DNA of 63,674 nt, counting the filler, from Klebsormidium nitens (lineage: Eukaryota > Plantae > Klebsormidiophyceae): NCBI GenBank assembly GCA_000708835.1. It is 5 parts of 5 records of this genome, joined end to end, with 100 filler letters (N's around TTAATTAATTAA, not from the genome) between each part and the next. Parts side by side here need not be neighbours in the genome. Positions count along the whole stretch, not along the records: positions 1 to 30,009 come from DF237713.1; 4 more parts are not named here. One strand, given 5' to 3'. How positions within the stretch are numbered: position 1 is the stretch's first letter; the number at the start of each line of letters is the position of its first letter. This document shows, piece by piece, positions 5,856 through 48,578 of this stretch. Under the pieces are notes generated by a model that ran no database searches, was not told the DNA's origin, and saw nothing but the letters and a program-made list of their open reading frames with translations. The position numbers were made by a program, and so were the translations under genes.

Positions 5856-8800
5856 ATGGATCATGGGCTCACATCAGAGAAGGCCACCGAGATGAAGCCA
5901 GGTAACATCTGGGTGGGATTGTCCGGAATGGACTGCAGCACTAGTACCTTTTGCAAGTGGATTCTGCCATCATTTTTCTTACCCTGTTTGAAGTGAGCTT
6001 GTGAGCTTGGTGAGGTTCAACTACACCATGTCATTGGAAGGCTGAGCCAGCATGCAGAGTTGGCAGAACAGCCCCTCTTATCTGTGCAGCCCCCTCCCCT
6101 CTTCCCCCTGCCCCCCTGCCGGACGAGGCCCTGCAGTGGTTGCTGCCCCTGGACTTTCTCCCCCGCGCCGCCGGCGCGGCGTGGCGCTGGCAGTGGCCGC
6201 CTGGCGTGGAGTATGCCCTGCGTGCCCTGGCGGCGGGTCCTGCCACCAGCGGGGTGGCGGCGGGGGTGGCCCTTGGGGAGGCCATCCAGGACATGCGCCG
6301 CGAGCTGCGCCTCGGCCGCTGCCATGGCAGCCTGCACACTGGTCTCCACACTTTTTTCCACCAGGTGAGGGCCCCGGTCCATAAAACACCCACTCTCGCT
6401 CATCTTCCCCCCCTACTTTCGTGGATGCTTTCATCACCGTCTACAGGCTCCCTGGCACGCATGGAAGGTGCTCAGGCTGTTGGCTGTCGCAGGTGCTCCC
6501 CCCCGCCGCCGCCGCCTCGTTCTTCCTGTCCACCCTCCCCGGCATGGCGGTGCTGGCGCTGTCCCTTCCTGCGGCCCTGCAAGCGCAGCACGCGGCAGCG
6601 CTGCAGGGCCACCCAGCCGGCCGCCACTCCCCCCTGCGCATTCTGCCGGCGCAGCAGCCAGGCCTCGTCATGCTCACCCAGGTAGGAACAGGGCAAGCAC
6701 TCGCGCAGACAGCAGGTGCCATGCCACTTCAGAGTAGTTGAACATGGTTTGTGGAGATGGGACTGTCCGTTTTGACAATTGGTGTCCTGGGTGGCTGCTG
6801 ACGCTGCGCGGCGCGGTGCAGGAGCTGATTGCGGCGCTGCTGGCGTGCAGCTTCTTGTGCCTCTTCCCTACGGGGCCACGCACGGACGAGATGCTGCCGG
6901 CCATCAACTGCGACCGCCTCTTTGGGTACGCAGCCTCGCACCTGGCCAACACCAGGCTCGGCAGAAGAGACAAAGCCGGGGTTTCGCTCAACATCAAAAG
7001 AGGCTCCTGCATGCTGCCAGATAGCTGCTGTAGGGCTGCGGGACCTCGTTCTGCGCGCCTGCCCTGCTGCTCTTGGCTGCAGTGGTGGTGCCATTTCTCA
7101 GCGCTCGCCTCCCCTGGGGCCCTGCAGGTTGCTGGTGCGGGGCGCCCCCTCGCAGGCGGCCAAGGTGCAGTGCCTGGTGCACTACTTTGGGCGTGTCACA
7201 CAGCAGCCCCCTCGCGGCACGGTCACCTTCGAGCGCAAAGTGCTGCCCCTGCCGGGCAGCCCCGGGGATCCCCCCGCCCCCCTCCCCACCAGCGAGGACT
7301 GGGCCGCCAGCACAGCTGCACTCTGCCCCCTCCAGGTACGCCACAGCAAGGCCACCGCTGCAGGGCCTACCGTGCGTTGCTTGAGGTTGTACGTCCATGT
7401 TTCAGCACGAGCTTCCCCGTGCGCCTTTCCTGAAGGCTGGTGCTGCTGCCTCATCCCTTTGTCCCTGACTGCCGCTCTGTTGACCCTTGTTTGCTTAGGC
7501 GGGTGCAGGTTCTGGACGGCGGCACGATTGAGGATGACGGCGCAGCCTACCTGCAAGTCGACTTTGCCAACGCCTTCCTTGGGGGCGGCGTTCTGGGTGC
7601 CGGCTGCGTGCAGGTGAAGCTTCGGCCCTGCTCTGCCCCCCCCACTGCCAGTGCGCCCCTCCGCTGCCTCAGCTGCGCCTGCTGCCCGTGCACCGCGGGC
7701 ATTGTCAGGCTGGGGCGTGACGTGCGGGGCGTGCGCGGTGCAGGAGGAGATCCGCTTCATGCTGTGCCCCGAGCTGCTGGTGGGCATGCTCTTCCTGCCC
7801 GCCCTCGCGGACAATGAGGCCATCGAGGTGGTCGGCGCGGAGCGCTACAGCGCCTACACCGGGTGAGCTGCCCTTCTCTCCGGACCACTGCCGCTCGCGC
7901 GCGGCTTCTGGCCGTCCTGGGCAGCGCGCAGCTGCGGATGAGGCCTGCTGCATGGCGCCTGACTCGGGCGCTGGGTGCAGGTATGCGGACACCTTCCAGT
8001 TTGCGGGGGACTTCGTGGACGCAACGCCGCGTGATGCGCTGGGGCGGCGCGCTACGCACCTGGTGGCCATTGACGCGCTGGCCAACCCGGGAACAAGGCA
8101 GTGGGCCTCGCAGCACAGGCTCAGGTCAGCACCAGCGCGGGAAGCGGAGGCGGCGTGGCCGTGCGCACTTATGGACGCAGTGGAGCAGAAAGCAGGCTGT
8201 AGTCCAGTCTGCGCCCCACTTGGCTATGAAACGGGCATACTGAAGCATTCTGGTGCCAGGCCAGTTTGTACTCGGCGGTGGTTTTGCAACTGACTTGTGT
8301 GGGGCGGGTTGCAGGGAGGTTAATAAGGCCTTCTGTGGATTCCTGGACCACGCCCCCCGGCGCGGTTGGGTCCATGACCCAGGGGCCCTTGCCAGCCCTG
8401 CCGGCGCGGCCAACGAAGGTGCACCGTCCACCAGCCCCGAAGGTGGGGCCAGCACGTCGGGCGCTGCAGTTGGCATGCTGGAGGGGGCACAAAGCGAGGC
8501 CGTGCCGGCAGCGGGAAGGGGGGTGGCGACTGGCAACTGGGGGTGCGGTGCATTTGGGGGTGACGTGCAGCTGAAGGCGCTGCTGCAGTGGATGGCGGCC
8601 ACGCAGGCGGGGCGACCGCAGCTGCTCTACTGCTCCTTCGGGGACGCCAAGGCCGCACGCCTGGCGCAGGTGACCCCCCGGCACCTCACCGAGCCGCCTC
8701 TATTCAACTGCTTTCAACCTTGCCGGGCTGCCTCGTGAGGGGATAGGCCTCGGGCAAGGACTGCAGGACCGTAGTCAGCAGGGAGACGTGCTGTGACATT

Positions 8801-10433: not shown

Positions 10434-12779
10434 TCAGTCGTCTCCTTCTGACTCGCTCTCTGATTGACTTTCTCCCAAGCTCCCCGCGCTCCCGCTGTCA
10501 CTATCGTCCAGGCTGGCAGCTGGAGCCTCATCCTGCAGGAACACACGAGGGGGAGGTGGTCACACGTCTTGCCGGGAACCAAGGTTCCGCCGGCAGAGGC
10601 AGACTGCACTTCAGGGTTGCGCCCAAAGGTTGTTCAGAAACAGACGTTCGATCGCCAAGAGCGTGCTGCGGCTTCGCCCCGCCTAGCGTTGCACCGCCCA
10701 GGCTGGTGATCGGAGTGACATCTCACCGCGCCCCGGTCCCAGTCCGCCAGCTTGTGGCGGCCCAGCAAGAAGTCGTCGCGGAGCACGTCCCAGCCCCCAG
10801 CGCTCGGCCCCGCCTCGGTGAGGTCCGCCTGTCATGCACACAAGCACGGTCAACAAGAGCGAGCCACAGGAACGACCGCGCCCCGCCTACGGGGAGGCAC
10901 TGGCGCAGGCACCCTCGCGCAAAGCCGCCATGGTACTGCTGCGAGTCCCCCACGCACAGTAGGTCGGCTTCGCCTTTTGGAGGGCTCCTATCCGCGAGTA
11001 ACAAAAATGTTCTTGGTCAAAAGGAGACAACATGACCACCGCAGACGAGTAACTCAAAAGATCGTGACAGATAAAGGAAGCTGCGCATTCTGGCGGTTAA
11101 GTCGACCTCATGACCTCTTCTAGGAGTGGCCACCAGGTGCCACACATGCAGGTCAGCAGTGCTGCACCACGGCGCACACGAATCTGCTGCAAAGTGGGGC
11201 TCGCTGCCCCCACACGCCTCCAATCTGGCGGCTTCCTCTTCCGAACTTCACCTTTGACACCGTACACACTATCAACTCCAACATCAGGCCCCCAGACATG
11301 GCGTACAACTTCGCCTTGCACTGACATGGATGAAACTGTCGTTCATCAGAGCCACAGGCAGCTGTGAGCGCCCAGCATTCCCAGGCGCTCCTCTCTTGTG
11401 TTACCTGCCGCCCCTCCCTGACATCCCCAGGCTCCCCTCCTTTGGGGCCCCTCTCTGCCCCCGCCGCACCCCCGGCCGGTGCGTCACCTGGCCGCTGCTC
11501 CGGTGCAGGGCTGCCCTCTGCTGCCCCCGCCACTCCGCGCAGCTCCGCCAAAAAGGAGCGCTTGTCCAGCCGGCCTGCTCCTGCACCCACCCATGAGTTG
11601 CCAATCAGTGGAGCAGACACAGCGCTATGGTCATACAATGGCAACATTGAAGCGGCTGATGTCCCGGCAGGATCAGCTCGGCTCATCAGTGCCGTCGATT
11701 GGGATGCGGTGCTGTCCCATCGAAGTGGCCCAGACTAGCCAGGCCCACACCTTTTGTTCTGTGGGGCCCATCTGGAGCCGCTGCCGCTGCCGCCTGCTCC
11801 TTTTGTGCCTTGGCCACCTGCGCAGGAGCCAAGCAGACAGGCATTCAACAGGGGGGATGCTGCGCTCGACATCCAAATGGGGGGTAAAGCTGGACCCTCC
11901 CACTGCTGATTGCTGCACCCAAGGGCCGTGCTAGGCGGGGGGGCACAGAGAAGGCGCGAGCAGCACGACTTCGCAGCGGACCAGGACGGCAGCATCTGTG
12001 AATCTGGTATGAGCGACCACTGCTGCGTGGCCCTCACCGCATTGAAGAGGCGCACCACCCCCCGCGTGGCCACCTGGCGCAGCGCACGCTCCGCGGGGGT
12101 GGGCCCCGCCACAGGCAGCACGTGCGCCAGCTCGACCAGCTGCACGCACACACAGAGAGAGGCGCGCAGTCAGGGACGATGCTGCCAGCCTGAACGGCAA
12201 CCAGCCGGGCCAAGCACGGCTGAGCGTGCAGGCAGCCCAGAGGAGGGTGTGGCCCACTGCTGGGGGCCAAGGGGAGCTCGTCCCCAAGAGGTGGCAATGT
12301 CTGATAATCACTTGACAAGTAAGCAGACACGAGTGACAATCAGTAAAAGGTCCTTGCAAACAAGCTTATCGATGGATCCGCTATCCCAGGTCCCGTCCTG
12401 GCATTTAGCCCCCTACATTGAATCCCAGCGCTAGCCGTTCTCCCCTGCCTGCTGCTGGCCTGCTGGCTTTCATGTGTATGTCTCCCCGCCTCACCTCTTT
12501 GCGCTGCCGCTTGGCCTCCTGCTGCCCTGCCTGCTCTGCACGCTCCGCCTCCGTCGCCGCTGCCACTGCGCGGTGCTGCTTCACCAGGATGGGGGCCGCC
12601 CCGCCAGCCTCCGGCCCCTCCTTGCTCAGGATCTGCAGAAAGGCGCGCGCAAACCCCGTCTCCTCCCCAGCGTCCGCCTCCTTCTCATCTCCATTGTGGC
12701 CAGTCTCTTGCTGTTCCGAGGTAAGGCCATGCTCTAGTGCCAATTCCTCCTCAACACGAGCCTTCCGCTTTGATCCCAT
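10434..12779 (-). CDS. RRP15: RRP15-like 60S biogenesis factor, 6 exons, ~276 aa
   Basis: Exons 12495-12779, 12038-12139, 11751-11817, 11405-11580, 10727-10828, 10434-10532 in phase; ERALRQVATRGVVRLFNAV, LDKRSFLAEL, WDVLRDDFLLGRHKLADWD and an acidic tail. Confidence 0.9.
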
Positions 12780-14094
12780 CCCTATTGCCTTAATCTGCAG
12801 CATCGAATGTGTGCTTTCTGAAGGCAGCTTGTCAAAGGTCGTCAGTGGCGGGGCGCGAGCAGTAGGCATACCACCACCACGGCATCAAGCAGCAGAAAGG
12901 CGCAGGCCCAAGGTGCAGGCCAGGCAAAAGCAAAGCAGCAGTGCAGTGGGGGTGCCTGAGACTCAGTGAGTGAGAGGACGTTTCCACCCGACTACCAGCA
13001 AGCCAAATGAACTTCGGCATTAAAATTGGGCCAGTCAGGGTCCGACACGTCAGCCCCCCAGAATACCTGAAAGTCCGTCGAAAAGCCTCTCCCGGTCACT
13101 ACGTGTGGGCATGGTGTGAACTACAGCCGGGCACTAGCCATTACCGCGCTGGTCTCATCCGAACGGTAACGATGTTGCATCCAGAGCATGCTTGCGGTCC
13201 AAGAGGTCCAAGCGGGTAGCCCATAACAGGACTCGGACGTCAGCAGCGTCTACAATAAACATTTCAGCATTTTACATGGTATGCTCGAGCCGATTCCAGG
13301 CATAAGCTGGGGTTTAACATTCCGGCCTCGAGTCGGCTCTCAATTCATGATGTCGAGAAACAAAATTGAGACGACAGTGCGCACGCGCGTTGAATACGCG
13401 AGCGGAAAGTGGTTGAAGTTTGGGCCTTCCGCGCACGTGTACCCTCCATAGCCTCAGTGCACTTCGAAATGGGAAACTAATCATTGGTAGGCAGCCACAA
13501 CTCTCCGGTCAGCGACCATAGCCAGGCCACTGCGTAGGCTTTTAAAAGCATGGCACAAAGAGCGCGTGCGTATAGAGAAACGCGGCTGGCCTCGATGACT
13601 CGTTGCCTGCACACCACATATGTATTTGATCGGGCTTGCATTTGTGCGTGTGCAAAACGACTAAGCACATGCCAACATCAGACAAGTTGCATGTGTAGTA
13701 ACGGATTAGCTTAGCTAGGTTAGCTTAGCTTAGATAACTAATCAACAGCTTCAAAACTACAAACCCTGTACCTCGAAAATTTGCAATAAGTGATTGCACA
13801 ATGCTGACTAGCTCAATGTGTAGGCAGGAAAGCTCCGAAGGATCAATTGCTCAGTTGCTTCTGCAAGCAGACGATGACATGGCAGCTCATTCTGCTATCC
13901 AAAGTCCAAGTCCAGCTATAAATTGTTTCGAAGCTGCTGGCTGATTTACAAGTAAAGCCAAGACAACTTGTACCATAATCTTTTCTTTTTATCGCAATGG
14001 GGAGTGTTCGCTTGGAAACGTGCCAGTTAGGTCGCACCGCTGTACATTTGCGCTTACCCGATCACTCGGGCACGAGCACTAGTGGCAATGATGC

Positions 14095-17000
14095 TCAACT
14101 ACCTGCAGGAGGAAGCTTCAAACGAACAACCCATTGCTTTATGCTTTTGAGCACGGCAGGGACTTCCTCATCTCTTAGAACTTTCTTGCCCTTGGACCAA
14201 GATTGCCATCCGTACTCATCAAACCTCTCTGTCGGCACCACATGCACTAATCGAACCTTCACTCCGCTTGCGCTGGCGCGCTCCACCAGCAGCCGCATCC
14301 CTTCCGCACTGGTTCGATGCTGGACGTTGCGCGTAAACTGGACAGCGTTGACCCAGCCGTCGCCCGAGCAGACTAGTGAATCCCAAGACTCCTGCACTTT
14401 TACCAACGGCTTTACATACGTCCGCACCAGCTTCGCCAAGTCGATTCCTTCGCTTGATGCGTCGTACTTCTTTTCTTTGCTGCCCCCAAACGCATCCCGG
14501 ATCTCCTTGATCGCTTGCTCCCTCTGCCTCTCCTCCGCTTCTGTCTCCGTTCGTGGCCGACCCACTGTCCCCTTGGACACCTCCTTTACATCCTCGGGAT
14601 CTAGCGCTATGCCCTGCTGACACATGTCATGCCCGTACTGCTCTAGAAGATCCCCGGTCATCTTGCCCAAGGTCGGCTCCTCAGCTGCAGCGCGCAGCAT
14701 CTCCGTCAGGTCCCGCCACCGGCCGAGCTTAGCTTTCTGGTAGACGAGCTCTTTGATCCGTTGCGAACCGAGGGTGTACCCGACCCACTCAAGGTCTTCT
14801 GTCGCCTGCACATGACAAGATTGCAGAGGTGATTCGGCTGCAAGTCCGTGGTATGTGGTCCATGTGCAGATGAGCGCATGCCCTCAAGTCTGCTGCACAC
14901 CTCCGCTTCAACTTGAGAGCACTTCAAAATGAGCTTTATAAGCACAGGACCAACTAGAGAGGAGCCCATTGTGTCACCTGCTTCGTATTGCTCAACCATG
15001 CAATCCAAGCGAACAAGCACCGCAAAGATCAAAGATGAGAGGTCGGCTATCATTTCAGCCATAACTTTTGACCTGTGCTTCAAGCTGACTCACCTCGATG
15101 TGTGCGAAGATGTGCCGCACTTCACTGTCCGAAGACTGGGCGCTCAGATTGTACAGCTCCACGGCCTGGTCAGCATCCAGCGTGCGCGCGATGTCGTCGA
15201 AAGACAGGATAGGGTTCGCCAAGACGTGCCTGACGAGCCCGCCAAACTCCTCCACGCGCTTCTCCATCTGCTCTTGCGACACCTGGTCGTAGAGGTGCTC
15301 CCGGCAGTCCTCCAGCTCCTTCAGCGTCCACACTGGCAGCCACCACAGGAAGCATCTCCTGCACCACCAATCCAGATTGCCCGGGTCACGAAAGCGAAGT
15401 GCCTGCTGCGGCAAAAGGTTGGGGTCAGAAGAAGTGTAAGAGCCACTAGACAACCAGCCTGTCTTTGCCAATGAATGGAAGGAAAATCGCAGGTGTCAAG
15501 CACCAGGAGGTAAAAGATGATCCTAAAAGAAAGAGGGGTTGCAAGAAGGAGCCCGAAGGAGGCGGCCTTGGAGCCAGGTTTGAACAATTTCCAGCAAGGT
15601 GCTGCGGTATCAATGGCTTGCAGCCAGGGTTCAGAGCGTCCATAATATAGCCAAGGTTGCAGAACAACAAGAACAGAGGGACCGAACAACAAGCACCCAT
15701 CTACAGTTGCGCGCTGCAGGCCTAGGCAAGCACCCAGGACCTTGGATACGTCAAGGATCCGATTCTTCTCAACGATGAAGAGGTCAATTTGGAGCAGGTA
15801 TTGTCTTTGTTCCAACGACTTACTCTCCCTTGCGGAACTCCCAGTAGTTGTCTCTGTTGGGCGAGCACAGTACCACGCAGCGACCATAACCCCGGAACTG
15901 CGTGTGAGGGGGTGCTCGTCCATCTATCACTTGCCAGACAGTGGGGCGCGAAGAGAGAGCTGCACAAGAAGAGAGGCCAATCACTTCTGGTGAGAATGCG
16001 CCGAGACCTCCCACATACTACTTCATCCACAGGCCCAGACCCAGAGTGTGCGCTTTCGCAGGGGCTTACACTGTCATCACGAAAGCCCACTTGCAGTCAA
16101 TATCCACCAACATAGGACCTTTGCATTCCTTGAAGCTAGAGCCAACTACCATTTGCTGCGTAAAATGCTTTTCGCGGTTGCAACAACATGAGAAACTGTT
16201 TGCTTACATTCAAGGGATGGGAAGTCAGCAGCGCTTTCAGAAGCCCATTTTACGTTGATGGCGGAAGGATCTGAAAAATCGAAGAAGATGATGGTGTCCT
16301 GTGTAGCCTGATCCTTGTACCTGCAAAGGCAGACTGAGAATGTTGGCAGAAGACGGGGAAGCATGATCTCCCTCATCTGGGAAGGCCTTGTTAGAAGCGA
16401 GGTGCAAAGCATGATGCTCAGCGACACACGCCACAAGTAAAAGCAGGCGACTACAGAGTTGGACGACCAGGACTTGGTGCATGCGTACCTGTATGCCACT
16501 TGTGCCCCCTGCCCTGCTAAGTGGTGCAGGAGGAGGACTGCAAAGGCAGACTTTCCGATGCCCGGGGTGCCACTCAGGACCACCGCAAAGTTGTCCCCAA
16601 GAGCCTCGAGCTTCGTCAGTACCGTGCGGTAGCACTCCCGGATGACAATGCTTTTCCGCAGGCCTGGCGGCAATCTGACCCTAAGCTCGGGCGGGATCTG
16701 TATGACTCCACTGGCAGTGTCCGCTCGCGCAATGAACTCAGCGTACTTCTGGAGCCCCTCTGGAACAAAGAGCAAATCATTCTTGTGGTGGGGGCTGACC
16801 ACCCGGAGATCAGACACTCTTGTGCCGTCACAAGAAACTCTACACCAGCCTCCACCGCAGCAAATCACCTTTGTGGTGGGCACTGACCACCGGCAGACCA
16901 GACACTCCAAAGCAGAAACTCTACACCAGTCACACAGCGCCTGAAACACCAATCAAGCAGACGACTATGCTGACAGGTGCGGCGAGTGCAGGTGGAGATA

Positions 17001-18028
17001 GGCACAAAGACTCACCCAGGACTGCAGGGTCTGGGGCCGCCGCCGCTGCTCACGACAGCAGCTATCTGTCAGCACTCCACATGCAGTCTCTGGATGAGCA
17101 AATTGCCAATGCTAAGCATAAACAGCGACGATGAGGTTGGAAGGAATTGCTCTGCACCGTAAGACCTTTCCGCCTGCAGGCTGACATGACCCATCAAGCA
17201 ACACAGGAACTGCAGGCAAACCCAGATACAAAAACCCTTCTGAAGCAGCAGCAGCTATGTGAACTCTCTGCACTTCAGGTCGTTCATGACCCATCGAGCA
17301 ATACCTGAACTGCAAGCAAAGACAAATAGAGAACCCTCTATGCAGTGTGCCCAACCACCCTCCTTGAGAAACATCGACAAGCAGCAAGGAAAATCCCTGC
17401 AGCACAACATTGGCAGCAGAACGCCACCTATGGTCTTTTCCCATCTGTGATTTGCTGGGCTGCTCCAAGGAGAGAATGTCTGCATAAGATCACTTTCCAT
17501 GCGTTAGACGCCGGCCGACACACCTGGTGTCTGCTGCAGCTTCAGATTTCCCAGCTCTGCCTGCACGAGCGCGGTCAGTCGCTGCTCGAGCGCGGCCTTC
17601 TCCTGCTGCAGCGCGACCTTCTCCTGCTGCAACAACTCTGTGCTCTTGCCATCAGCCGCAGCCGCAGCCGCAGCCGCAGCTACAGCGTCGATCTGGTTCT
17701 CCACACGATCAATCCTCTTCTCCACACGCTCGATACTCAGCTTGAGGGCCTGTGCCTTGAGCACCTGAGGCTTACTGTCATCCCCAGTGGGACTCCCAGC
17801 GGACTCTGCTCTTCCCTGGGGGGTCTCTGCCCTCGGCGAGAGGCGCCTCAGTCCCGACCCCACCCTGTACTCGGGGTGGAACCGGCCCAGCCTCGATCCC
17901 TCAAACAGAGGGCGAGGAAGTGCCCTGAACGCAGATCGCCGGGGCGTTGCAGGGGCATTGCCTGCCTGCCCGCACGAACATAAAGGCTTCGCCCCGGCCG
18001 CCTTGAAGAGCACTGCGCCAGACGCCAT
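14095..18028 (-). CDS. Crinkler/RHS-like CR-NTPase + PD-(D/E)xK REase protein with coiled-coil header and transit-peptide-like leader (spliced)
   Basis: VVLSGTPGIGKS (Walker A), VWQVIDG, VVLCSPNRDNYWEFRK, WLPVWTLKEL, FGGLVRHVL, then YVKPLVKVQESWDSL...AVQFTRNVQH and VRLVHVVP; exons from ~16795 to 14095 splice in phase; the join of exon 1 (17524-18028) to the rest is inferred. Confidence 0.75.
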
Positions 18029-19584
18029 AGAACCTCACCAGTGACGTCCCGCAGAGACCAGTGAATGCGGCGCTTGAGCCCTCCCAACCTGCCACTCAGC
18101 CCTCGCACTCGACCACGATCTTAGATGACGAAGCTGAGGCCCAGAAGGGCGCTAGATTCAGGGGTACCGAGCGTTGATATGCCCGAATCAAAGGGCGAGA
18201 TTTTCTCACGTGGGCGAGCCCTTCTAGGACAGAATCAAGCGACGCTGGAGCGACCGCTTTAAGGACAGAGTTTCCGAGAGTTTTTGTGCTCGTCTTGTCG
18301 GTTATGCCCAGGAAGATCACGATCCTCCTGCTTCAAGCCTTTGCTCATGCGTTGGCACTAAGTATCCCAATCAGTCCGCCTTTCAAAAGGGCTCTGGCAC
18401 TGAATTTTCCTTGACTTCAAGGTCTCTCACATCCCTCGTTGCTGGAGTGACTCTGCATCGTGGACTTGATCAAGTTGATGCCAATCAGGGTAGCCCCCCG
18501 GACCCAAAGAGGTGCAGGTCGGCAGGGGGGTCGAACCGTGGGGTCGAAAACCCCCCGTAACGGACGGTGCGCACCACATTGTGCTGAATTTCCTGAACCG
18601 AGCTCTCGCTTAGGGGTAAGAGCCGATATTCGGTCTTATTTTCCTAAAAGAGTGCTTGACAACGTAAATTGCGATAGATAGCACGTTGTATGGTCTAATA
18701 CTACGTACATATTTGCACCAGAGGGGCGGCAGGAAACAACTCCTACTATTATATTGGTTATACTTTTTGGCGAATGCCCACATTGCGCCGACAGGCGTGG
18801 GCATTTGCCTTGCATTTGGGTTGTTTGTTTCTATCCCGTTTCCGCTCCCACAACCATTGCCGCATGAACACTAAAATTTTGCCGACAGTTCTTATAAAAC
18901 TTCCGGCCAATGGCGATGCAGTATAGTTGTCCGTATCGACAACTAGGTACGGGGGCACTGAGCAGACTGAACTTACCGTCGCAGTACACTGACGGTACGT
19001 ACCGGACCGCGGGCTGGAGTCCAGTCACAGGCTGCAGACTGCCGCCAGGTCAGTACCGTACCACCGTCCAAAAAACCTTCCCGCGGTACGGTACGAATAT
19101 GACCTACTGAATATGACCTACTGCGGTACGTAGCGTATATTAGACCGCACACTGTTGGATTCGATTTAATTAATCATATAGCCCGCATATATGTGCGAAT
19201 ATACGCTATTCTACATTTGCATAGGGCTGTTTGCAGTAGTCTCCTCTATCCAATATATTCAATAAATTTGCCTCTGAAGGCAATAGGGGGACGTCAAGCA
19301 TTCGCCAATTTTTAGCGATTCTCAATCGCAGGCATAACTTGTCTTCCGAAAAATCAATAAGAAGGGATGCAATTTTTTGGGTATGGCCTTACTACATACA
19401 TATTCGCAAAGAGCCCTAGAAAGGAAAGTGTCCCACTGCGTATCGATTATACTTTTCTTCCGGAAAGACAGAAGAAAAGTATAACCTTCTCCCGGTCGGT
19501 CGCGATTCCCGAAGTTCCTGTCCATCGGCCGCCATCCCGGGCTCTTTCTCCCTCCCCCCCTGAGAGCCGCCCAAATAAACACTA

Positions 19585-19985
19585 TTTTCCAGGAAATTGC
19601 CCAGTTTGGTTGGAGATAAGACGAGAGCCGGACACGAGAAACTCATGTCGTACCTGTCTTTCCTGTCTGCGCGCTCTGTTAATTACAAAATCTCGAACAT
19701 TTTTCCTGGGATGGTTGTAGGAGATAAGACGAGAGCCGGACACGAGAAACTCCTGTCTTTCCTGTCTTTCCTGTCTGCTCAAACTGTTAATTACAAAATT
19801 CCAGACATTTTGCCAGGTATGGTTGGAAATAAGACGAGAGCCGGACACGAGAAACTCCTGTCTTTCCTGTCTTTCCTGTCTTTCCTGTCTGCTCGTACTT
19901 TTAACTGCAAAATTCCGGACATTTTGCCCGGTATCGTTGAGGATAAGACGAGAGCCGGACACAAGAAACTCCTGTCGCTCGCTCA
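19585..19985. repeat. Tandem array, ~4 units of 105-114 bp with an internal CCTGTCTTT microsatellite
   Basis: Core (g/a)ATAAGACGAGAGCCGGACAC(G/A)AGAAACTC at 19615, 19723, 19828, 19942 (periods 108, 105, 114). Confidence 0.95.
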
Positions 19986-21104
19986 CAAATGGATGACATA
20001 TTCACCGGAATGGTCAGTGAATACGCCGACCCTCTTGTGCAATGCTTTTGTCTGTCCCGTCTGCTTGTCATCCCACTCAGTATATTACAAAATAAAACAA
20101 TATATGTGCTAGAATGTCTGGAGAATAAGCAGAGGGCACCATTTGGGTCTTCCTTCTCGTCAAGAGGACTGTTGTTCAAACTGTTGTTCAACGCGCTTGC
20201 AGACTTCCATGAAGGATTGAGGGAATGCTGTTATTACAAGCTGCCTCGAGCTGTGAGACCAGCTCCAGGGCCAATTGCAATGGCACAGCACGGCACTTTC
20301 CTGCAAGTGTGGGGCGTCAGGCGCGCTAGCTGCTGGCAGGTGCAGCTGGGTAAGGCGCAGCGTGTTTGGGAGTGCAGCGTTTTGCATCTGCCTTTTGAGG
20401 AGTTGCGGGCGGTGGCAAGCTGCGTCACAGGGCTGGCAAGCTGCGGCACAGCGCCCGGCAAGTTGTGGCATGCTGTGGCCCATTTGATGAGCTGGCAGCG
20501 GCAGGCTGTGGCATGGGGCGGGCAAGGCTGTGGCAGGGTAAGCTGTTGGTGGCAAGGCGGCGGCAAGGCGGCGGCATTGTGTGGCAGCCCTGCATGCATG
20601 CCACCTGTCCAGGGTTCGTACCTAGCTTGGAAACTTTCAAGAAAGAGGCATTTCCAAGACAAAAGAGCTTAGGGCCATAGTCAAGAAGGCATTTCAAGTT
20701 CAGGCTCTCTCAAGAAGATGAGCACGGCGCCAGGTTGCAAGAGCGGGTAAGTATCGCACCCCCTCACCTTTTGCTTTTTACACACTGCCCTAAGATTACC
20801 TTGAGGGTTGCTCTGATGCTTCTTATCAGGTATCAACATGTAAGTTGCAGGAGGGGTAACGTTTCATCTCTCGAATGTTTGCGGCGGGCAAATAGTTTTG
20901 AGATTAGGATTGAGAGGCGTCTTAAGAAAAGGGACTGAGGTATGATTTCACATATGCCATGCATGTCGTCCGTATCTTGATTCATCTTTTGATAGGCTAA
21001 AGCGGCGCTTGCTGTCGGCTGATTGATGGCATCTCTTTGAGCTAATTGGAGGCCTGCTGTTGAGCCGACTTGAGGCTCATTGTACCCTACATAGGGTTGG
21101 TTTC

Positions 21105-21600
21105 AGGCACACTGTTGGGCTGATCGGGGGGGGAGGTGCTGTAGGGCTTTTTTTTGCTTGCTGTGGGGCTGCTCTGACTCCAAGCTGGTGGGCTAATTGG
21201 GCACCCGGCTGTGGAGCTGACTTGGGGCCCATCATAGGGTCGGTTTCACGCCCGCTGTTGGGCTGATTTGGGGGATTGCTGCCGGGCAAAATTCCCTGCT
21301 CGCTGTGGGGCTAATCTGGCGTAATGCAGTTGGGCTGATTTGTCACTTACTATGGGCTGTAGTGGCACCCGCTGATGGCTGATTGGGGGCCCATTGTCGG
21401 GCTGGTCTTGGGGCTTGCTGTGGGGCTGATTCAGGGCCCGCTGTTTTGGCTGGTTTGGAGCCCGCTTTCGAACTAATCAGTTGGCACTGTGTAGCTGATT
21501 TGAAGTTCGCTGTGAGGCAGATTCTGAGGCCTTTGCGGGGCCGTTGGTGGCCTGATTGAAGGCTCGCTGTGGGGCTGGTTTGAGAAACGTCTGGTTGATC
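21105..21600. repeat. Degenerate GCTGTGGGGCTGATT-like repeat tract
   Basis: About a dozen variants of (gct)gtggggctgatt / gttgggctgatt at irregular spacing. Confidence 0.6.
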
Positions 21601-22135: not shown

Positions 22136-25100
22136 ACGGATGAAACCACCCAAGTCGCGGCAGAGCTTGAAGCGGGGCCCAAACCCGTGGCACCCCTGCC
22201 ACAGGATGATGGGAGTGGGGGGGAGATTTTGCACGCCAGCGCACTTGATGCGGTGAGACGACGCCCCGCCTCATTGACGTCTGCAGCCATTCCAGAGCGT
22301 ATGCGTTGTGTTGGATGGCTAACGCTCTTGTCCCAGTGTCCAGATTGTTCTCAAACTTCTTTGGTGCTATGGCGCATGGGGGAAAGCTATTTTTTGTCTC
22401 TGGATTCTGCTGAATCTGAGAATTTTCGAATGGGGTCAGGTCCCGAGGAAGCCCAATGACCCTCAACACAACATCAATTCGTGGAATTTGAAATGATTAA
22501 GGGACTTGTTTTTCAGCCAAAAACCACAACTCCGTGGCTTTTCATTGCAGGTGCACGAGACGGAGGAGCCACGAGCATCCAGTTCGCATGGCCTGCTTGA
22601 CCCCAACCACTTTCACACTTTCCAGCGCAACCTGAAAGAGGAGTTGGCGACAGCGACCAACGATTCTGAGGTTAGTGGATCCCTCTGATCCTTCTGACTA
22701 GGCTCTTCCCCTTCAGCACTCAGCGGACAGCGGGCAAATGACCTGGACCGTTCAACGCAACCCCGGAATGGCTGCTGACGTCATAAAGAATGACCCAAAC
22801 TCAAAACTACAGAGTCTGTACACTTGAGATACTCGGACAGGGAGAGAGAGTTTCTTAGTTGCCAGTTGCCAGTCAAGTTACGCGGGATATATCATAGATG
22901 ACTCTCGACCACAGAATGAAGCCACAAAATTTGGACATTCGGATAGGGGTCTGGTCCGTCAATTCCGTCCGGATGGCTGCTGACGTCATGGAAAGAGGCT
23001 CCAAAGTCAGAATCATGGTAGAAAAGTCGGGCACTTGGAGGGGGGGTTTGGGCCGTCAATCGCTTCGGGGTGGCTGCTGTTATCATTGGTAGAAACTCAG
23101 GCCGGGCTTTGGACGGCCGTCAGTTGTAGCCAAAAATCGTAAGATCAACAGCGCTTGCCGCCCTCTCTCTCAAGTTGCTTTCTTGATTTCTTCTCACGAC
23201 AGACTGCACGCACGCTTGTGCAGGCGAGCTGCGGTCATGATGACCGGCAGCATGCGCGCCTTTTCAGTGAGGAGTTGCAGGGCTCAGAGTCAGAAGGGGT
23301 TGGCGAGACCATTGACGAGGTAGAGTACACCAGAGAGAAGGAGTCGTCCGACGAAGAGAATTCCCAGGATCTCAGCTTCATCAACAACGAACCCAAAACC
23401 GGTCAGAATCCCTTGATCACCTACGGCCAAATGAACGCTGCAATTGAAAGCGACTCGGAGCCAAGCCTCTCTCAGCTTCTGGTGGGGCGCTTCAAGCGGC
23501 GGGCACCTGCTGGAGCAACCGGCTCGCCCCAAAACAGGCGGCGCCCCCGTGTGGTGCACTCGTCGCCCGAGCCCTCTGCTGACCTTTCTCCGGCAAACCA
23601 AAGCCAGCAGCGTGGCTCTGACAAGGGCGGGACTGATCAGCCGATGCTGGACGCCGGCGCCAGCTCTGACGATGCTCCACGGCCCGAAGACGACGGCTCG
23701 TTGGACGAGTTTGACCTGGACCTCTTGGACGAGTTCGCAATATGCGAGATTGTGCCGCGTGCACGATCACGGGCTGGGACCTTGGTGAGCACATCTCCCT
23801 TTCTGCGCTGACTTCCCATTCCGTTCCGAGGATGTCCTTTGCGAATGAATTGGCTCACTGTGTTCTGGTCAGCAGGTTTCAGTGGTTCGTGTACATTTCG
23901 ACGTAATCACCAAGGACAACCAGTCATGTACACAAATTACGTGTTGAAAAGCTCGTTGCGCTTGATCTGAACCCCTTCAGCTTTCAAACTTGGTGCGCTC
24001 AAGTCTGAACTCCTGGATCATCGAAGTCTGGTTAGCGCTTGATTGGTTAAGATTTTTAAACCCGTATCTAGAGCGCAGAAGTCTGCTGAGCGCTTGGATC
24101 AAGTCCTGAAGTGCAAAAGTCCGGTTGGCGCTTTTCTGTGTGCACAAAGTCCAGATTTCCTGGAGCGCTCAAAGCTGAGTAGCGCCAAAGGCCTGTTCAA
24201 ATCATTCACGTACGAATAGCATCCAATCAAAAAGCCCGTCAGAGGCCTTTTGGACTGCCAAGTTTGCAGGCGTTCACTGAACTTATGCGCCTGTATTCAA
24301 CGCATCTTTCTAATCGAGAGTTGCGCTGTCGGTTCTAAGGCAATCCGGTGCCATTTGCTTGGCAGCTTTTCAGCCAGATCGTGTACATCTCGACATAATC
24401 AACTTTAAAACAATTGCTGCTGTACACAGGTCGGAAGTCAAAAAGCGTTTTGCTCCTGGTCATTCGGTCATCAAGAACGTTTGCTGAGCTTTTCTTTTGA
24501 ACTTATCTTGTGACGGTATAGTTTTTTGAGACCTTGACTGATTCCTTTTACTATCTCTTTGCAGCCCTCAGCCGCTGGCGCACTTCTGAGTTTGCTCCAT
24601 GCGACTGGGGTGCCTCCTTCAGAGCTGTCCACGCCAGTCTTGAACGCGCCGCAGCCCGATCCTGTCGATGCTCCCCCTTCTCCCGCCATCCCCTGTCCGC
24701 CCCAAAACTCTCCGGCCGCCCCAGCTGTCCTAGCCATGCCCGCAGCACCCAACGCCGCCCCCCCTGTCGCAAGGGCGGTTCCAAGACCCGCTGGTGACCG
24801 GTGCGCGGCGGCCGCTCGTCATTTGCACGGGCTGGGCGTGGCGTCGCTGACGTTCAACATGAAGGTCTGGTCGAACGACAAAGGGGAAGAAAAGAAGGGC
24901 CCGCTTGGCCTCATGCGGGACTGGGGCAACAAGTGTGACCTTGACAACTGCCTGCGGGAAGGGGTTCGGCCCGGCCGGAGCTGCCTTGCAATCGTGACGG
25001 AGGCCTCGGACATCTATGCCCTCGACGTTGACACGAAGGACGGCGGGGGCGAGGCCTTCGAGCGGATGCTGGCGGAGCACGGTCCCCTGCCGGACGACAC

Positions 25101-28100
25101 CCCCTGGGAGTGGACCGGAAATCGGCCAGGGAGACACTTCTTCTTCTCCCTCTCGCAATCCAAGGCCGCGGGCTTACTGAGCGGAGCCGGAAGGGCTCGT
25201 CTGACCTACAAGGGCGAGAAGGTGGGGCTCGACACGCGCGGTGAGGGGGGTATGCTCTTTGTGGGGCCCAGCAGCTACAAGGGCTTGGACGGCGCTGTCC
25301 GGCGGTACGAGTGGGTGCAAGAGATTGCGCCGGACAGGGCCAACCTCCGGGCCATACCGCTGTGGTTGACCGCAATCATCAACTCGAGCGACGCGCCCGC
25401 AAGCGCACCAAGGTAAGTCCGTCTTTTGTGCTATTCCAAAAGGACTGGAAGAATCTGGCCATCCCCCTCAAAATTCGCTGTGACTGATAGCAGGAAGGTG
25501 TCCGAGTGTCCAGACTTTTACCATGATTTTTGAGCCGGCCTTCTGATGACGTCAACAGCCATCCCCTTAAGTTCCGCTGTGACTGATAGCAGGGACGTGT
25601 CCAAGTGTCCGAGCTTTTGCCAAGACTTTTCGGGCGGCCTTCAGATGAGGTTGGCGGCCAACCCCCTCAAAATTCGCTATGGTTGATAGCGGGAAGGTGT
25701 CCGAGTGTCCAAGCTTTTGCCAAAACTTTTCTGGGGGGCTTTCAAATGAAGTTGGCAGCCATCCCCCTCAAAATTTGCTATGGTTGATAGCAAGAAGGTG
25801 TCCAAGTGTCCAAGCTTTTGCCAAGACTTTTCGGGCGGCCTTCGAAAGATTTCGGCAGCCATACCCCTCAAAAAACGCTGTGATTGGTAGTGGGAGCGTG
25901 TCCGAGTGTCCAAGCTTTTGCCAAGACTTTTCGGGCGGCCTTTGAAAGATTTCGGCAGCCATACCCCTCAAAAAACGTTGGGACTGATAGCAGGAGCGTG
26001 TCCAAGTGTCCGAGCTTTTGCCAAGACTTTTGAGCTGGCCTTTAAAAGATGCCAGCCGCCATCCCCTTTGATATCCGCTGTGATTGATAGTGGGAGCGTG
26101 TCCGAGTGTCCAAGCTTTTGCCAAAACTTTTCTGAGCGGCTTTCCAATGAGGTTGGCAGCCATCCCCCTCAAAAATTCGCTGTGACTGTTAGCAAGAAGG
26201 TGTCCGAGTGTCCAAGCTTTTGCCAAGACTTTTGAGCTGGCCTTTGAAAGATGCCAGCCGCCATCACCCAGATATTCGAGCTGTAACTGATAGCAAGAGC
26301 GTGTCTAAATGTCCAGACTTTTGCCGTCATTTCGGACAGGTTACGATCCTTTTTTTAAAAGTTCTGCTTTTTTGATGAAGTGGCCTCTTTCCATCGTGCA
26401 GTGATCGGGCACCGCTCGTGAGGTTCAACCCAACGGAAGACGAAGAGGCCACAGTACAAGACGCGGCGCTCCCGCCACCGCCGGCGGTCTTGAAGCGTGT
26501 CGAGGAGTGCGTAGCCGCTACCGGCGACTCTCACTCCCGCTTCGAGAAGCTGAAGCGACTCGGTGCCGCCGACATGTACGTGTTCCGTGTGAACGGCCCA
26601 CGGGTGTGTCCGTACGAAGCGCACCACAGCGGGTCGAACAACTTCTTCGTCCTTGTGCGCGGATCAGAGCTCGTGTACCACTGCCACAGCTCTGAATGCA
26701 GCGGCATCCAGCCTAAGCGCGGCATCGGGCAGCTCACGCCGCGCGAGACCCGGCTGGTGGGCGAGACAGCGCCAGTCGCCGCCGAGGACTCAACGGTGTA
26801 CACGCCTCTGACGAAATCCTTCGTCGATTACTGGGCCCACAAAGGCGACATGGGGGGCAGTGAGATCGCCACCAAGATGTACGCACAGTGCAACAGGTAG
26901 GTCGTACAAACAACAAATTGCTGCTTTGACTCGCTGCCGTTTTCAAGCCTTGATCATTGCAGGACCATCCTGAGAGCGGCGTATGCTCTGATCTATCTCG
27001 TCCGTTGAAGTTTTTCAAAAGATTCTAGCCTTGCAGATAGTCGGAAGTTGCAATTGGAAGCAACCAGAGACGTTCATTGCCATTCTGTTTTTCAGCAAGC
27101 GCCGCACACCACCTTTTGCAGGCGACCTGTTAAAGTGTCTTCTTTCAGCTGGAGTTCTTCAAAAGAGAGCACTCCACGGGCAAAGATGACCGCGCTGCAT
27201 GCTTTCACGTTCCTGAAAAAAGGGTTCAGATTAGAAGTTTCTTGTGGGCACCTCTTCTCATCACATCTTCTGCATTCCGTGCAGGTTGTGGTACGATGGA
27301 AAGAGCTGGTGGATGTGGGACGGGCAGCGCTTCCGAGAGACGGGGGACTCTGTCGTGCTCTTCGTCATCATGCATCAACTCAGCACCGTGTACGACCGGC
27401 GCGCAACCGAGCTCGAGGATGAGTTTGAGAAGACCAGCAATGAGGAAGAGAAGAAGGTAATTCGAGGGTTGCTGGGGTCGCTCAAAAACTACAATGGTTC
27501 CAATGCAGTCGCAGGGACGCTAGCGGTGATGAAGGGGCAGATGCAAAAACGCCTAGCTGAGGAGTTTGACGCCGATCCGGACATCCTGAACCTGCACAAT
27601 GGTGTCCTGGACCTGCGCACCGGCCAGCTTGACGTCCACAGGCCCGGCTATCGCTGCACCAAGATGGCCGGGGCAAGCTTCCGAGTGAGCTTTCCCTCTC
27701 TTCGACCAACGTGCGGGCCTGTGAAGCATCAGAATTGCATCTTTAGTACGTCTTGCAAGAGGTGTACATCTGCTCTAGGCGCTCTCTAAGGTTCATAACC
27801 TTCTCTGTAAGTTGTCGGGTATGCAGGGATTTGAAGCATGATTGACTCGTTTGCAACGAAAGTTGATGCACGATCTTCAATTCTCCTGTCTCTTTTTGCA
27901 TTGGTGCGCGCTCGTTCTCACTCCCTTTCGTCTCTCAGGGCCTGGACTTCCCCACACCAACGATCGACAGCTTCCTCTCTGACATCTTCAACGACGACCG
28001 CCCTCTGATCGAGTACATGGAGCGGCTCTGGGGCTATGCCATCAACGGCTCCACATCGGAGGAGCTCATCGCCTTTCTTCTCGGCAGCGGCGGTACGCCT

Positions 28101-29548
28101 TTCTTGCCTTATTTCTTGTTTCTGGATTGCTCTACGAATAGTCGGAAGAAGAGAAATGCACGTGTGTCTGAGTGTCCAGACTTTTGCCATGATTTTTCAA
28201 CCGGCCTTCTGATGACATCAGCCGCCATCACCCCCCCCCAATACTCGTTGTGACTGATAGGAGGAAGGTGTCCGAGTGCCAAGCTTTTGTCATAATTTTC
28301 TGGGCGGCCTTCAGATACGTCAACAGCCATCCCCCTAATGAGTCTGCCGTGGCTGATCAACAGCAGGAAGGTGTCCGAGTGTCTGAGTTTTTGCCATGAT
28401 CTTTGAAAACGGGATTTAGATGACGCTGGCAGCCATTCCCCCCAATACCCGCTGTGATTGATAGCAGACAGGTGTCCGAGTGTCCAGACTTTTGGCCATG
28501 ATTCTTGAGCAGGCCTTTCGATAAAAGTCGGCAGCCATTCCCTTCAGGATCCGCCGTGACTGAGAGCAAGGAAATATCAAAAGTGTTTCCACTAATCTTT
28601 AGAATGATACAGAAACAGCCTGACGTCAATTGCAACTCCTAAAAATATCGAAGCGCTCATTTAATCTCCGGAATCATTGTTCTCACGTGTCCTTTCCCTT
28701 GCTTCCCTCTAGGCAACGGAAAAGGCGTCGTCAAGCAGATGTTGGAGAGCACGCTGGGCGAGTACTTTAGCGTCATGGCGAAGGACGCCGTGGTGAAGGC
28801 CCTGGGACAGCGCCCCCCCTCGAAGGGCGCCGCCACGGGCTATCTCGCAGAGCTCCAGGGGTTTCGGGTGGCCATCACGGACGAGACGAGCCCGGGGGAG
28901 CGCGTGGACTTGGGGCTGGTCCTCGGGATGACCGGCGGCGGCCAAGTCTCCGCTCGGCTGCTCTATCGGAACAACGTCATGTTCCGATTCTCCCACACCC
29001 CGTTCATCCAAACCAACTACGACCCGGAGATCCCCCCCACTCTCGCGAAGCAACCCAACGTCCAGCGCCGCTTGATAGTGGTCCAGTTTCCCAACGAGTA
29101 CGTCTCCCAGGACAAATACGACGAAACCAACCCCCGGCACAGGCGCGTAGATACCGGCCTCAAGGAGCGGATGGAGGCGCCGGCGGTCCGGGAAGAGTTC
29201 CTCACGTTCTTGATCCAGGGCAGCGTCGCGTACTTCGCGAACCCAAAGGTTCTGCGGACGCACCCAGCGGCCATCCAAGCGGCGACCGCGGCATGGCTGG
29301 GCCGCGGTGACAAGCTTCAAACGTTCTTGCGGACCGAACACGTCATCGTGGGCGAGGACAAAGTCGCGTGGGAGGATGAGTTATGGGGTCAGTTCCAGGC
29401 TTTTGCAGGAATCAAGATATCCAAGGAAGAGTTGTGCAGGCAGATGGGGGAGAAGGGATATGCTAGGACGAAGAAAGGGGGACGCTTTGACGGGGACCCG
29501 TCGAAGCGGATGTTGTGCTACCTAGGTCTTTCGTGCGAGTACGAGTAG
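22136..29548 (+). CDS. D5-like primase-helicase: acidic N-terminus, bifunctional Prim-Pol (AEP) domain, Zn module, D5_N, SF3 helicase; at least 8 exons, at least 1,183 aa; 5' end unresolved
   Basis: Exons 22136-22252, 22551-22670, 23203-23784, 24565-25412, 26402-26896, 27285-27684, 27939-28092, 28713-29548, all GT-AG and in phase (the first three are less certain); ALDVD, GRHFFF, LDTRGEGGMLFVGPS, CPYEAHHSGSNN...CHSSEC, DADPDILNLHNGVLDL, GSG|GNGKG, AITDE, IQTNY. Confidence 0.9.
25470..26330. repeat. ~100-bp tandem satellite, 9 units, filling intron 25413-26401
   Basis: GTGTCC(G/A)AGTGTCC(A/G)AGCTTTTGCCA core at about 25498, 25597, 25697, 25798, 25898, 25998, 26098, 26199, 26301. Confidence 0.95.
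28160..28570. repeat. Same ~100-bp satellite, ~4 units, in intron 28093-28712
   Basis: GTGTCCGAGTG-type cores near 28163, 28268, 28371, 28472. Confidence 0.9.
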
Positions 29549-30109: not shown

Positions 30110-30298
30110 CCAACCGTCACATCAACTATCAACAATCTGACCCAAATGTGTGCGCGCGCGACGAATCAGCTGGGTTGTATTGGGGCTGGATTGGGCAGCG
30201 TTCTGAATCCAATTTTCTGAACGAAAGACTGAACGAAATGATGCTCAGATCAGCAAGCAAGCAATTATCGGCGGCACCACCACAAATTAGACGACATC

Positions 30299-31507: not shown

Positions 31508-31616
31508 CATTCAGGAATTGTTGCCACCGAGCAGTCCGCAGAAGTCATGCGCGGCGTCGCCCACTCTTTGGCACCGGTTGCAGGGGGTGCGCAAACATCC
31601 GTGCCGCGCGTATTGA

Positions 31617-32336
31617 ATGCATGAAACAATATCAGCCCAGTGCAATATGGAACTAGCATGTACGGACTCTGAGTGGGCGCAGATATTGGTCGTTTCAGTA
31701 TCGCCGCGCCCACTCCAAGAATTGCTCACACCACTGTTCCCTGACATGTCCATGGAACGCATCAAACTCATCGACAATGTGTTGCTGGGATGGAGACTGG
31801 ACGATGCCGACGTATATAGGACATGGCGAAACAATGCCGATGAATGCCGTAGGCACGTTCAATCGTTGCACACATGGGGCGACATGTCACCAATAATTCA
31901 GCTCGCCAATCGACTGATCGCGATGTGTCCCAAAACTTCAATGACCCCTTGGATCAAACGTACTAGAAACTGTGGGAAGTACTATGCATGCCGCAACTCA
32001 GCGGGGTCTCTGTTTGCACAGATTCTGGGGCGCGTTTCAAACATCGTCTGTGCATTGTACATCTCGTCTCAGTTTGCAACTCTGCGGAAGAATGCAGTAC
32101 GACAGCAGCAGCTGGGAAACGGCTTTTGCCAATTCGAGGCACCACCTCCCAAACTCTCTCACCAGATGAAGCAAGATGCCATACGATTTGATCTTTCGAT
32201 CCAAGAAACGTTTGCGATGGGTGTAGAGTTTGGGAGCAAAGTGGGGTATTGCGAGACTGCTGCGCAGATGCAATACCTAAACGACCTGTTGAAAACTACT
32301 GAACTCTGGCTCAATGAAGTTGCCTCTACCAATTGA
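31617..32336 (+). CDS. Hypothetical protein, 239 aa
   Basis: Long ATG ORF with ordinary protein composition, co-oriented in a gene-dense segment; no motif recognised. Confidence 0.5.
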   Translation: MHETISAQCNMELACTDSEWAQILVVSVSPRPLQELLTPLFPDMSMERIKLIDNVLLGWRLDDADVYRTWRNNADECRRHVQSLHTWGDMSPIIQLANRLIAMCPKTSMTPWIKRTRNCGKYYACRNSAGSLFAQILGRVSNIVCALYISSQFATLRKNAVRQQQLGNGFCQFEAPPPKLSHQMKQDAIRFDLSIQETFAMGVEFGSKVGYCETAAQMQYLNDLLKTTELWLNEVASTN

Positions 32337-48575: not shown

Positions 48576-48578
48576 GCC

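Follow-up and report, generated by a model that had tools for sequence, protein, structure and literature searches.

The DNA analyzed here (the window) is a 63,674-nucleotide (nt) stretch of the genome of the alga Klebsormidium nitens, composed of 5 joined parts, and the subject of this analysis is a gene on its minus strand that runs from an ATG at 18028 to a TGA at 14095 (Table 1). When a 30-nt micro-exon is included, the gene has an open frame of 676 amino acids (aa), predicted to encode, in this order, a leader resembling a chloroplast transit peptide (cTP), a coiled coil, a P-loop NTPase, a helical linker, and a restriction-endonuclease-like (REase) fold. An earlier note, made from the sequence alone, had placed a Crinkler/retrotransposon hot spot (RHS)-type (CR) gene at 14095-18028, and this was borne out by the presence of a Walker A motif (GTPGIGKS), a Walker B-like motif (VIDG), and a nuclease-like exon (14095-14805). 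Members of the CR class are described as a variable header followed by a P-loop NTPase, a helical linker, and a C-terminal REase-like domain (Zhang et al. 2016, as outlined in PMC5289972).

Splicing was analyzed with contigs from 8 runs belonging to seven studies; 20 of the 24 runs listed contain the stretch or part of it. The likeness threshold for contig mapping was 95% in 4 of the 8 runs and 85% in the 4 others, and at 85% transcripts of paralogues contribute. The runs themselves are not recorded as RNA, and the contigs were taken as RNA because their joints fall at GT-AG introns. Five of the 6 introns, all canonical, were seen as contig joints, and the sixth (16321-16488) left a loose end at 16323 in each of the 4 runs of one set. 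Introns 14806-15093, 15359-15823, and 15960-16207 had joints in 4 of 4 runs each, the joint of intron 16760-17015 (16759/17016) was present in all 8 runs, and that of intron 17090-17523 (17089/17524) in 7 of them. Contigs without differences from the window extend upstream to 18454 and downstream to 13671. The contig joints therefore place exon 17524-18028 on the same transcript as the NTPase exons; a separate transcript for exon 1, one of the two conditions that the earlier note had named as fatal to its proposal, was checked against the contigs and is not the case. The direct junction between these exons that had also been supposed did not stand, since an extra exon ending at 17016 lies between them. 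Splicing straight from 17524 to 16759 would be in frame (666 aa) and is listed in none of the 8 runs, and the same was found for the alternative in-frame acceptors 17048, 17030, and 17021, bearing in mind that contigs drop rare forms.

Table 1. Features of the CR gene, from upstream to downstream along the transcript.
Feature	Position	Strand	Basis or remark
5' untranslated leader	18029..18454	-	contig 18032-18454, 0 differences; transcription reaches 18454 or beyond
Two upstream out-of-frame ATGs	18432, 18348	-	list of ATGs
Transit-peptide-like leader, residues 1-67, ending ...RLSPRA then E	17828..18028	-	putative cleavage site
Rest of exon 1: acidic/unstructured linker (68-88) and predicted coiled-coil header (about 89-168)	17524..17827	-	coiled coil from paralogue model: helices 88-169 in P0002
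Phase-1 donor of exon 1	17523	-	
In-frame 30-nt micro-exon, 10-codon linker	17016..17045	-	joint 17045/17524, 2 of 4 runs at 85% likeness
74-nt alternative of the micro-exon	17016..17089	-	upstream acceptor 17090-91; joint 17089/17524, 7 of 8 runs
NTPase exon with Walker A (SGTPGIGKS, from residue 241)	16489..16759	-	nSTAND3 E 8.5e-06, below cut-off
NTPase exon	16208..16320	-	joint 15959/16208 and loose end 16323, 4 of 4 runs
NTPase exon containing the Walker B-like VIDG and a CSPN motif	15824..15959	-	
C-terminal part of NTPase (LPVW, FGGLVR) and helical linker	15094..15358	-	
Helical part and predicted REase-like domain, stop TGA 14095-14097	14095..14805	-	
3' untranslated region	13671..14094	-	contigs 13671/13694-14205, 0 differences

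The claim of a CR-NTPase plus CR-REase architecture is supported by profile relatives, Atlas neighbors, structure models, and conserved residues. Exon 16489-16759 resembles P-loop NTPase families, with all matches below the Pfam cut-offs (the value for nSTAND3 is in Table 1). A profile built from four paralogues matched 1,365 proteins at E <= 0.001 (best 150 listed). Among 83 aligned relatives, 6 carry the Pfam Crinkler ubiquitin-like (Ubl) header and 3 match RHSP, and the columns of the Walker A, DG, SP, PxW, and GGxxR motifs are conserved at 90% or more. In the Atlas, the nearest named cluster of the paralogue P0002 is "Crinkler (CRN) family protein" (0.95), and an RHS-named cluster lies at 0.90. 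In the structure model of P0002 (predicted local distance difference test, pLDDT, 81), residues 1-85 are disordered and residues 88-169 form two long helices. They are followed by an NTPase that matches STAND proteins, by a helical region between the NTPase and the REase, where a helix-turn-helix would be expected in the CR class, and by an alpha/beta C-terminal domain. The model of the last exon of the gene in the window has a pLDDT of 90, and the top 12 of 50 rows in the VIA comparison are nucleases or nuclease-fold proteins. Residues E495, D582, Q596, T598, and H603 (numbered on the 676-aa model) are kept in 63, 60, 58, 57, and 50 of 64 aligned relatives, respectively, and by analogy may form the active site. 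A loop inserted in the nuclease domain (14632-14540, residues about 515-530) contains a GRPR patch at residue 522; this patch, and the RKRRGRPRK and PKRK patches of paralogues, resemble AT-hook or nuclear localization signal (NLS) motifs.

To examine the leader, the headers of paralogues were surveyed through protein searches. The nearest named relatives are all K. nitens proteins, at most 87% identical. In the 13 leaders collected, acidic residues are zoned: D and E make up 1.2% of residues 1-20, 5.9% of the part up to the RA site, and 16.9% of the next 25 residues, and R and K peak in the middle part, of which they make 17.6%. All 13 leaders end at residue 63-69 with [P/V][R/K]A followed by E or K (PRA then E or K in 11, PKA then E in one, and VRA then E in one). 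The last of these belongs to P0023 (K. nitens KFL_008520010), whose leader ends in FSVRA followed by E and is homologous to the others: it scores 25.8 bits with a profile built without P0023, while 2,000 shuffles reach at most 9.0, and exon 1 matches P0023 in BLASTP with an E of 2e-05. Identity to P0023 is 34-37% in the leader and coiled coil and 21-26% in the NTPase and REase parts, and its NTPase falls outside the clade of the gene in the window in a quick tree of 102 rows, from which 12 near-duplicate ids and bodies under 290 aa had been dropped. Finding a homologous leader on such a distant body implies that the exon either moved between CR bodies or has long been conserved, and both suggest a function. 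We infer that leader and coiled coil constitute an exon 1 module shared by distantly related CR bodies in K. nitens. Relatives such as P0022 and P0151 begin directly at a similar coiled coil, which marks the leader as an addition ahead of a helical header. A leader-profile search for a host donor gene yielded none, the 12 matches at E <= 10 all being headers of this family (best 7,993 candidates scored). Residues 1-90 of P0002 returned no usable match in an Atlas feature search, an outcome that speaks neither for nor against a function.

The close CR paralogue P0154 (K. nitens KFL_005680050) has a body of the same clade and a different header, so that the recombination of headers and bodies that characterizes the CR class is seen both in this protein and in P0023 (homologous header, distant body). 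Within residues 1-80 of P0154, the header opens with a segment that matches part of the splicing factor Cwc15 (PF04889, E 1e-09), and after it comes a basic stretch whose end reads TVRMQA; the Cwc15 piece may be a captured host exon or a gene-model fusion. Identity of the gene in the window to P0002 and P0003 is 84% in the first NTPase exon and 49% in the nuclease, and this shift along the gene points to recombination. The annotated models of P0001 and P0004 are devoid of the REase core and P0163 consists of the header only; the family shows birth and death.

The leader had been described as rich in Ser, Ala, and Arg and as free of acidic residues over its first ~40 aa. Residues 1-40 indeed contain no D or E, the first acidic residue being E43, but this holds for this copy specifically because P0001-P0004 have a D at 23-25. 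Likewise, the leader is rich in Ala, Arg, Gly, and Pro but not in Ser, which occurs 3 times in the first 40 residues and makes up 9% of residues 1-67. The coiled-coil header behind the leader was confirmed, and so was the proposal that the header is not ubiquitin-like: exon 1 gave no match to PF20147 at E <= 1, and the N-terminus of P0002 is modeled as coil plus long helices. The leader has a net charge of +10, with 10 Arg in 67 residues and the first of them at residue 30; the hydrophobic moment of residues 1-18 is low (0.12), the best amphipathic windows begin at residue 31 or later, and 17 windows follow the FGLK rule. The combination of four features (no D/E in residues 1-40, net charge of at least +9, a [VIP]RA motif, and an FGLK window) occurs in 0.26% of 20,000 stop-free shuffles and in 0.15% of 2,642 stop-free 90-codon stretches taken from the window, rates that are optimistic because the features were picked after the sequence had been seen.

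Ahead of the coiled coil, exon 1 offers no in-frame ATG other than the first, and its translation must therefore begin at the leader. A stop-free stretch of 90 codons arises in only 10% of shuffles of this DNA, and all 12 headers found are open. Among the RNA insertions and deletions (12 of 22 shown), those listed in coding exon 1 preserve the frame (a +6 and one compensating +1/-1 pair), and of the 9 that are listed upstream of the start codon, 7 have a length not divisible by 3. An expressed paralogue whose leader residues equal those of P0163 was found in a contig covering 17875-18435. It differs from the window at 23 of 144 leader bases and at 5 letters or fewer plus one gap in about 400 bases of the 5' untranslated region (UTR); thus 23 of its 28 differences lie in the leader. 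A diverged leader next to a nearly identical 5' UTR suggests gene conversion of the UTR.

A cTP is reported to start with MA and to have an acid-poor center and an Arg-rich end near VRA followed by AA (PMC2291561). The leader agrees with this layout in its MA start, its acid-free N-terminal part, and its Arg content, which increases in the direction of an xRA site located around residue 67. An unstructured stretch preceding a helix separates cTPs from mitochondrial transit peptides (mTPs) (PMC10363480), and cTPs are unstructured both ahead of the amphipathic helix and past the cleavage site (PMC10363480, PMC9133816). This, too, is predicted for the leader, ahead of its amphipathic helix (moment 0.12) as well as past the putative cleavage site, although the pLDDT below 50 of P0002 residues 1-85 stems in part from thin alignment cover. 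The reading of the leader as a transit peptide, which the earlier note had preferred over a secretion or ubiquitin-like header, is thus partly supported by the charge zoning over 13 leaders, the RA-then-E end shared with P0023, and the absence of a ubiquitin-like header. On these sequence features we consider import into an organelle of either kind probable, and import into the plastid slightly more likely than not. Because the 13 leaders are not enriched in serine (6-10% Ser), another mark of cTPs, the leader is classed as cTP-like in function and not as a proven cTP.

The same features bear on a mitochondrial or dual-targeting presequence, which would direct the nuclease to mitochondrial DNA or to both organelle genomes. 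The net charge of +10 with its 10 Arg fits such a presequence, the sites at which cTPs and mTPs are cleaved are recognized in either organelle (PMC10363480), and the chlorophyte relatives P0044 and P0123, as well as the relative P0130, have Arg-rich N-termini of mitochondrial look by eye. Typical mTPs are helical from the start (PMC10363480), and the leader of this copy has no Arg before residue 30 and a low N-terminal moment. The low moment of residues 1-18 and the position of the first Arg favor the plastid over the mitochondrion; we give mitochondrial or dual targeting a small chance.

If the leader directs plastid import, the precursor would pass through TOC/TIC and be cleaved after the PRA at residue 67, and the coiled coil would oligomerize the protein. 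NTPase gating is the prevailing view for CR proteins (PMC5289972), and by analogy with other CR NTPase-REase proteins the NTPase would gate the nuclease, resulting in ATP-gated DNA cutting. The nuclease would then cut plastid DNA, serving nucleoid turnover or the clearance of damaged or invading DNA rather than mating, and the frequent out-of-frame splicing of the micro-exon could keep the dose of a potentially toxic nuclease low. We estimate a probability of roughly 0.45 for this whole mechanism, a CR NTPase-nuclease with a cTP as leader that acts on plastid DNA. A role in uniparental inheritance, which had been raised as well, found no support in this analysis. To our knowledge, no sexual cycle has been documented for K. 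nitens, and plastid DNA turnover or defense is therefore likelier than uniparental inheritance. For the algal class, the available part of one paper mentions only zoospores (PMC11341676).

Several observations weigh against chloroplast targeting and the proposed mechanism. The leader has P at -3 and E at +1 of the putative cleavage site, off the Arabidopsis consensus of [V/I]-x-[A/C/S] with A/S/V at +1 (PMC2291561), and VRA is found in P0023 only; in addition, the leader has two central Glu, and P0023 is devoid of an FGLK window. GC-rich DNA by itself yields Ala/Arg/Gly/Pro peptides, and when this DNA is shuffled, 8% of the stop-free outcomes have residues 1-40 free of acid as well. Of the 13 leaders, 12 are near copies and hence not independent. 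The ratio of non-synonymous to synonymous differences (pN/pS) in the leader is 0.59 against the one expressed paralogue (Fisher p = 0.21), and with this p value purifying selection on the leader is not demonstrated. For the nuclease, the VIA scores of the fold are middling (Z 4.5-5.2, root-mean-square deviation 3.6-5.6), and Foldseek with the nuclease exon gave no match at E <= 0.001, nuclease-type proteins still being ranked first. P0002 and P0003 bear the NLS/AT-hook-like RKRRGRPRK and PKRK patches mentioned above. Finally, the Crinkler proteins (CRNs) studied so far are nuclear (PMC5289972).

Several of these points converge on another explanation, namely that the leader has no targeting function, being a disordered extension that is tolerated, and that the protein is an ordinary nuclear or cytosolic CR nuclease, either selfish or defending against invading DNA, of which the nearby viral and transposon sequence would be an example. 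The nuclear location of studied CRNs agrees with this, as does the proposal that plant CR proteins act against intracellular invasive DNA (PMC5289972). The basic GRPR-type patches in the REase insert, which are strongest in the paralogues, also point in this direction, together with a leader pN/pS that is not separable from neutral, the low serine content, the off-consensus cleavage site, and the proximity of a region with primase-helicase, HNH, and TnpB-type genes that begins about 6 kb away. A tolerated extension does not readily account for a leader that is homologous between CR bodies of ~25% identity and keeps its RA-then-E/K end and its charge step at the same place, and this copy is without the strong K/R cluster of the paralogues. 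We hold a nuclear or cytosolic protein with an untargeted leader to be rather unlikely. Should the leader have no targeting role, this would be one more ordinary CR copy specific to its lineage.

The product depends on which acceptor of the micro-exon is used. Splicing to acceptor 17045 gives the 30-nt form and the open 676-aa frame, and a 10-residue linker is present at this position in every full-length leader-bearing close paralogue (P0001-P0004). Splicing to acceptor 17089 gives the 74-nt form, which shifts the frame and ends at a stop at 16616-16618, leaving a header-only product of 240 aa. A further set of points against the proposed mechanism comes from here: the 30-nt joint was seen in none of the 4 runs at 95% likeness and in 2 of the 4 at 85%, plus a loose end in run X2, and the one difference-free contig of run X15 that spans the junction is the out-of-frame 74-nt form. 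Contigs with zero differences also run over the first intron in 4 of 4 runs of one set and in 3 of 4 of the other (partially in X15). In a rough balance of depths, between about a quarter and a third of the flow through the locus is left over for another acceptor in runs X1, X2, X5, and X7 and nothing in X8, contig depth being a poor measure of abundance and contig assembly dropping minor paths. The in-frame 30-nt form is probably the family norm and a minority form at this copy.

These data raise the possibility that the copy is decaying or mostly silent as a protein, its main RNAs giving header-only products that are degraded or serve as decoys for full-length paralogues. Such products would be of 240 aa (74-nt form) or about 174 aa (intron retention), the 74-nt joint and the first-intron contigs have the wide occurrence among runs given above, and the incomplete P0001, P0004, and P0163 offer precedents in the family. 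Decay is at odds with a 676-codon frame that is intact with all conserved residues present, with the share of flow left for another acceptor in 4 of the 5 summable runs (none in X8), and with the loss of minor paths in contig assembly. We assign a low probability to a decaying or decoy copy.

Comparison with known systems places the protein in the CR NTPase-REase class, with which it shares the order of the body and, among its paralogues, header swapping and broken copies (PMC5289972); it differs in having a transit-peptide-like leader ahead of the coiled-coil header and in its host, a free-living alga. The headers named in the available part of that review are Ubl, helical, Myb/helix-turn-helix, and one hydrophobic, with no organelle-import header among them (PMC5289972). 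Oomycete and fungal CRN effectors (PF20147 Ubl header, LxLFLAK) have a related NTPase and REase body, but the Klebsormidium protein is without the Ubl/LFLAK header and nothing suggests its delivery into another organism. Trypanosome RHS proteins (PF07999) have a related P-loop domain (P0001 against RHSP, E 0.0022, below cut-off), and the Klebsormidium protein has the leader and coiled coil instead of an RHS_N domain. With green plant and algal cTPs (PMC2291561, PMC10363480, PMC9133816) the predicted leader shares the features described above and differs in its low serine, its P at -3 and E at +1, and its two central Glu. Tribolium Medea1 and Wolbachia CifB are CR-related NTPase-REase or REase proteins tied to selfish inheritance (PMC11342252); they belong to other subfamilies by the description in that paper, the available part of which reports no organelle leader for them. 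In the literature searched by title and the start of abstracts, we found no organelle-targeted CR protein and no Klebsormidium CR genes, the defining survey of Zhang et al. 2016 being outside reach.

CR proteins have been regarded as nuclear toxins that are passed between organisms or aimed at invasive nuclear DNA. If the leader imports, a class hitherto known from nuclei would gain a new destination: there would be a conflict-derived, ATP-gated nuclease in the chloroplast of an alga closely related to land plants, a candidate for plastid DNA turnover or organelle-level defense, and an example of nucleus-organelle conflict machinery assembled by exon shuffling. N-termini of organelle look were also noted by eye in relatives from other algae, namely P0044 (Volvox reticuliferus), P0123 (Chlamydomonas eustigma), P0096 (Pylaiella littoralis, a brown alga), P0138, P0130, and P0039; P0096 has a hydrophobic stretch or signal peptide and then Phe, and P0138 has GVAS followed by FAP. 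These relatives sit in separate parts of the quick tree. A fixed screen (no D/E in residues 1-20 and net charge of at least +4 in residues 1-50) was applied to Met-start relatives with a long N-terminal part and passed 10 of 56, comprising 4 K. nitens proteins, a single Volvox gene represented by 3 isoforms, and 3 others. P0004, P0123, P0096, P0138, and P0039 did not pass, and the pattern in other algae therefore comes largely from inspection by eye; moreover, GC-rich algal gene models can mimic organelle leaders. It is a tentative and rather doubtful idea that algae have more than once redirected transposon-derived Crinkler-type NTPase-nucleases into organelles of their own, Klebsormidium by way of a shuffled transit-peptide exon and the other algae by leaders that fit their respective import routes. 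If true, this would reveal an unrecognized class of DNA-cutting enzymes, encoded in the nucleus and active in organelles, by which the genomes of plastids and mitochondria are policed or pruned.

Within the gene, contigs of 4 of 4 runs in one set carry other letters than the window at 9 places in 15172-15286 (exon 15094-15358), and in the same 4 runs at 14236 and 14251 in the last exon; at none of these places do the letters of the window occur in a contig. These deviations may reflect masking paralogue contigs, a strain difference, or an assembly mosaic. The first two introns contain short internal duplications of 49 and 61 nt, at 16771-16907 and 17185-17345.

The flanks of the CR gene showed neither terminal inverted repeats nor any other convincing ends of an element. 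The gene is adjoined by host genes, a poly(ADP-ribose) glycohydrolase gene at 6738-8293 on the plus strand (PF20811, PF05028) and an Rrp15-like gene at 12405-12884 on the minus strand. Open reading frames (ORFs) at 24538-29548 match a primase-polymerase (PF09250, E 1e-15) and D5_N (PF08706, E 6e-16), followed by a helicase-like ORF (by eye); together they represent, broken into several pieces, a primase-helicase of the type found in viruses or mobile elements. A viral-looking run of long ORFs at 30242-42107 includes a 5'-3' exonuclease-like ORF, an HNH endonuclease (39295-40269), and a protein of the TnpB/Fanzor type with a length of 608 aa or more (40230-42053; PF07282, PF12323, PF01385); this run may represent an endogenous virus or another element of the alga. 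Remnants of a retrotransposon-like integrase and reverse transcriptase were recognized by eye at 43897-48800 and 58462-60045, with a chromodomain ORF (PF00385) at 59455-60045. Two repeat arrays lie upstream of the CR gene, a tandem array with units of about 108-114 nt at 19597-19995 and a second array of degenerate 16-50-nt repeats at 20992-21583.

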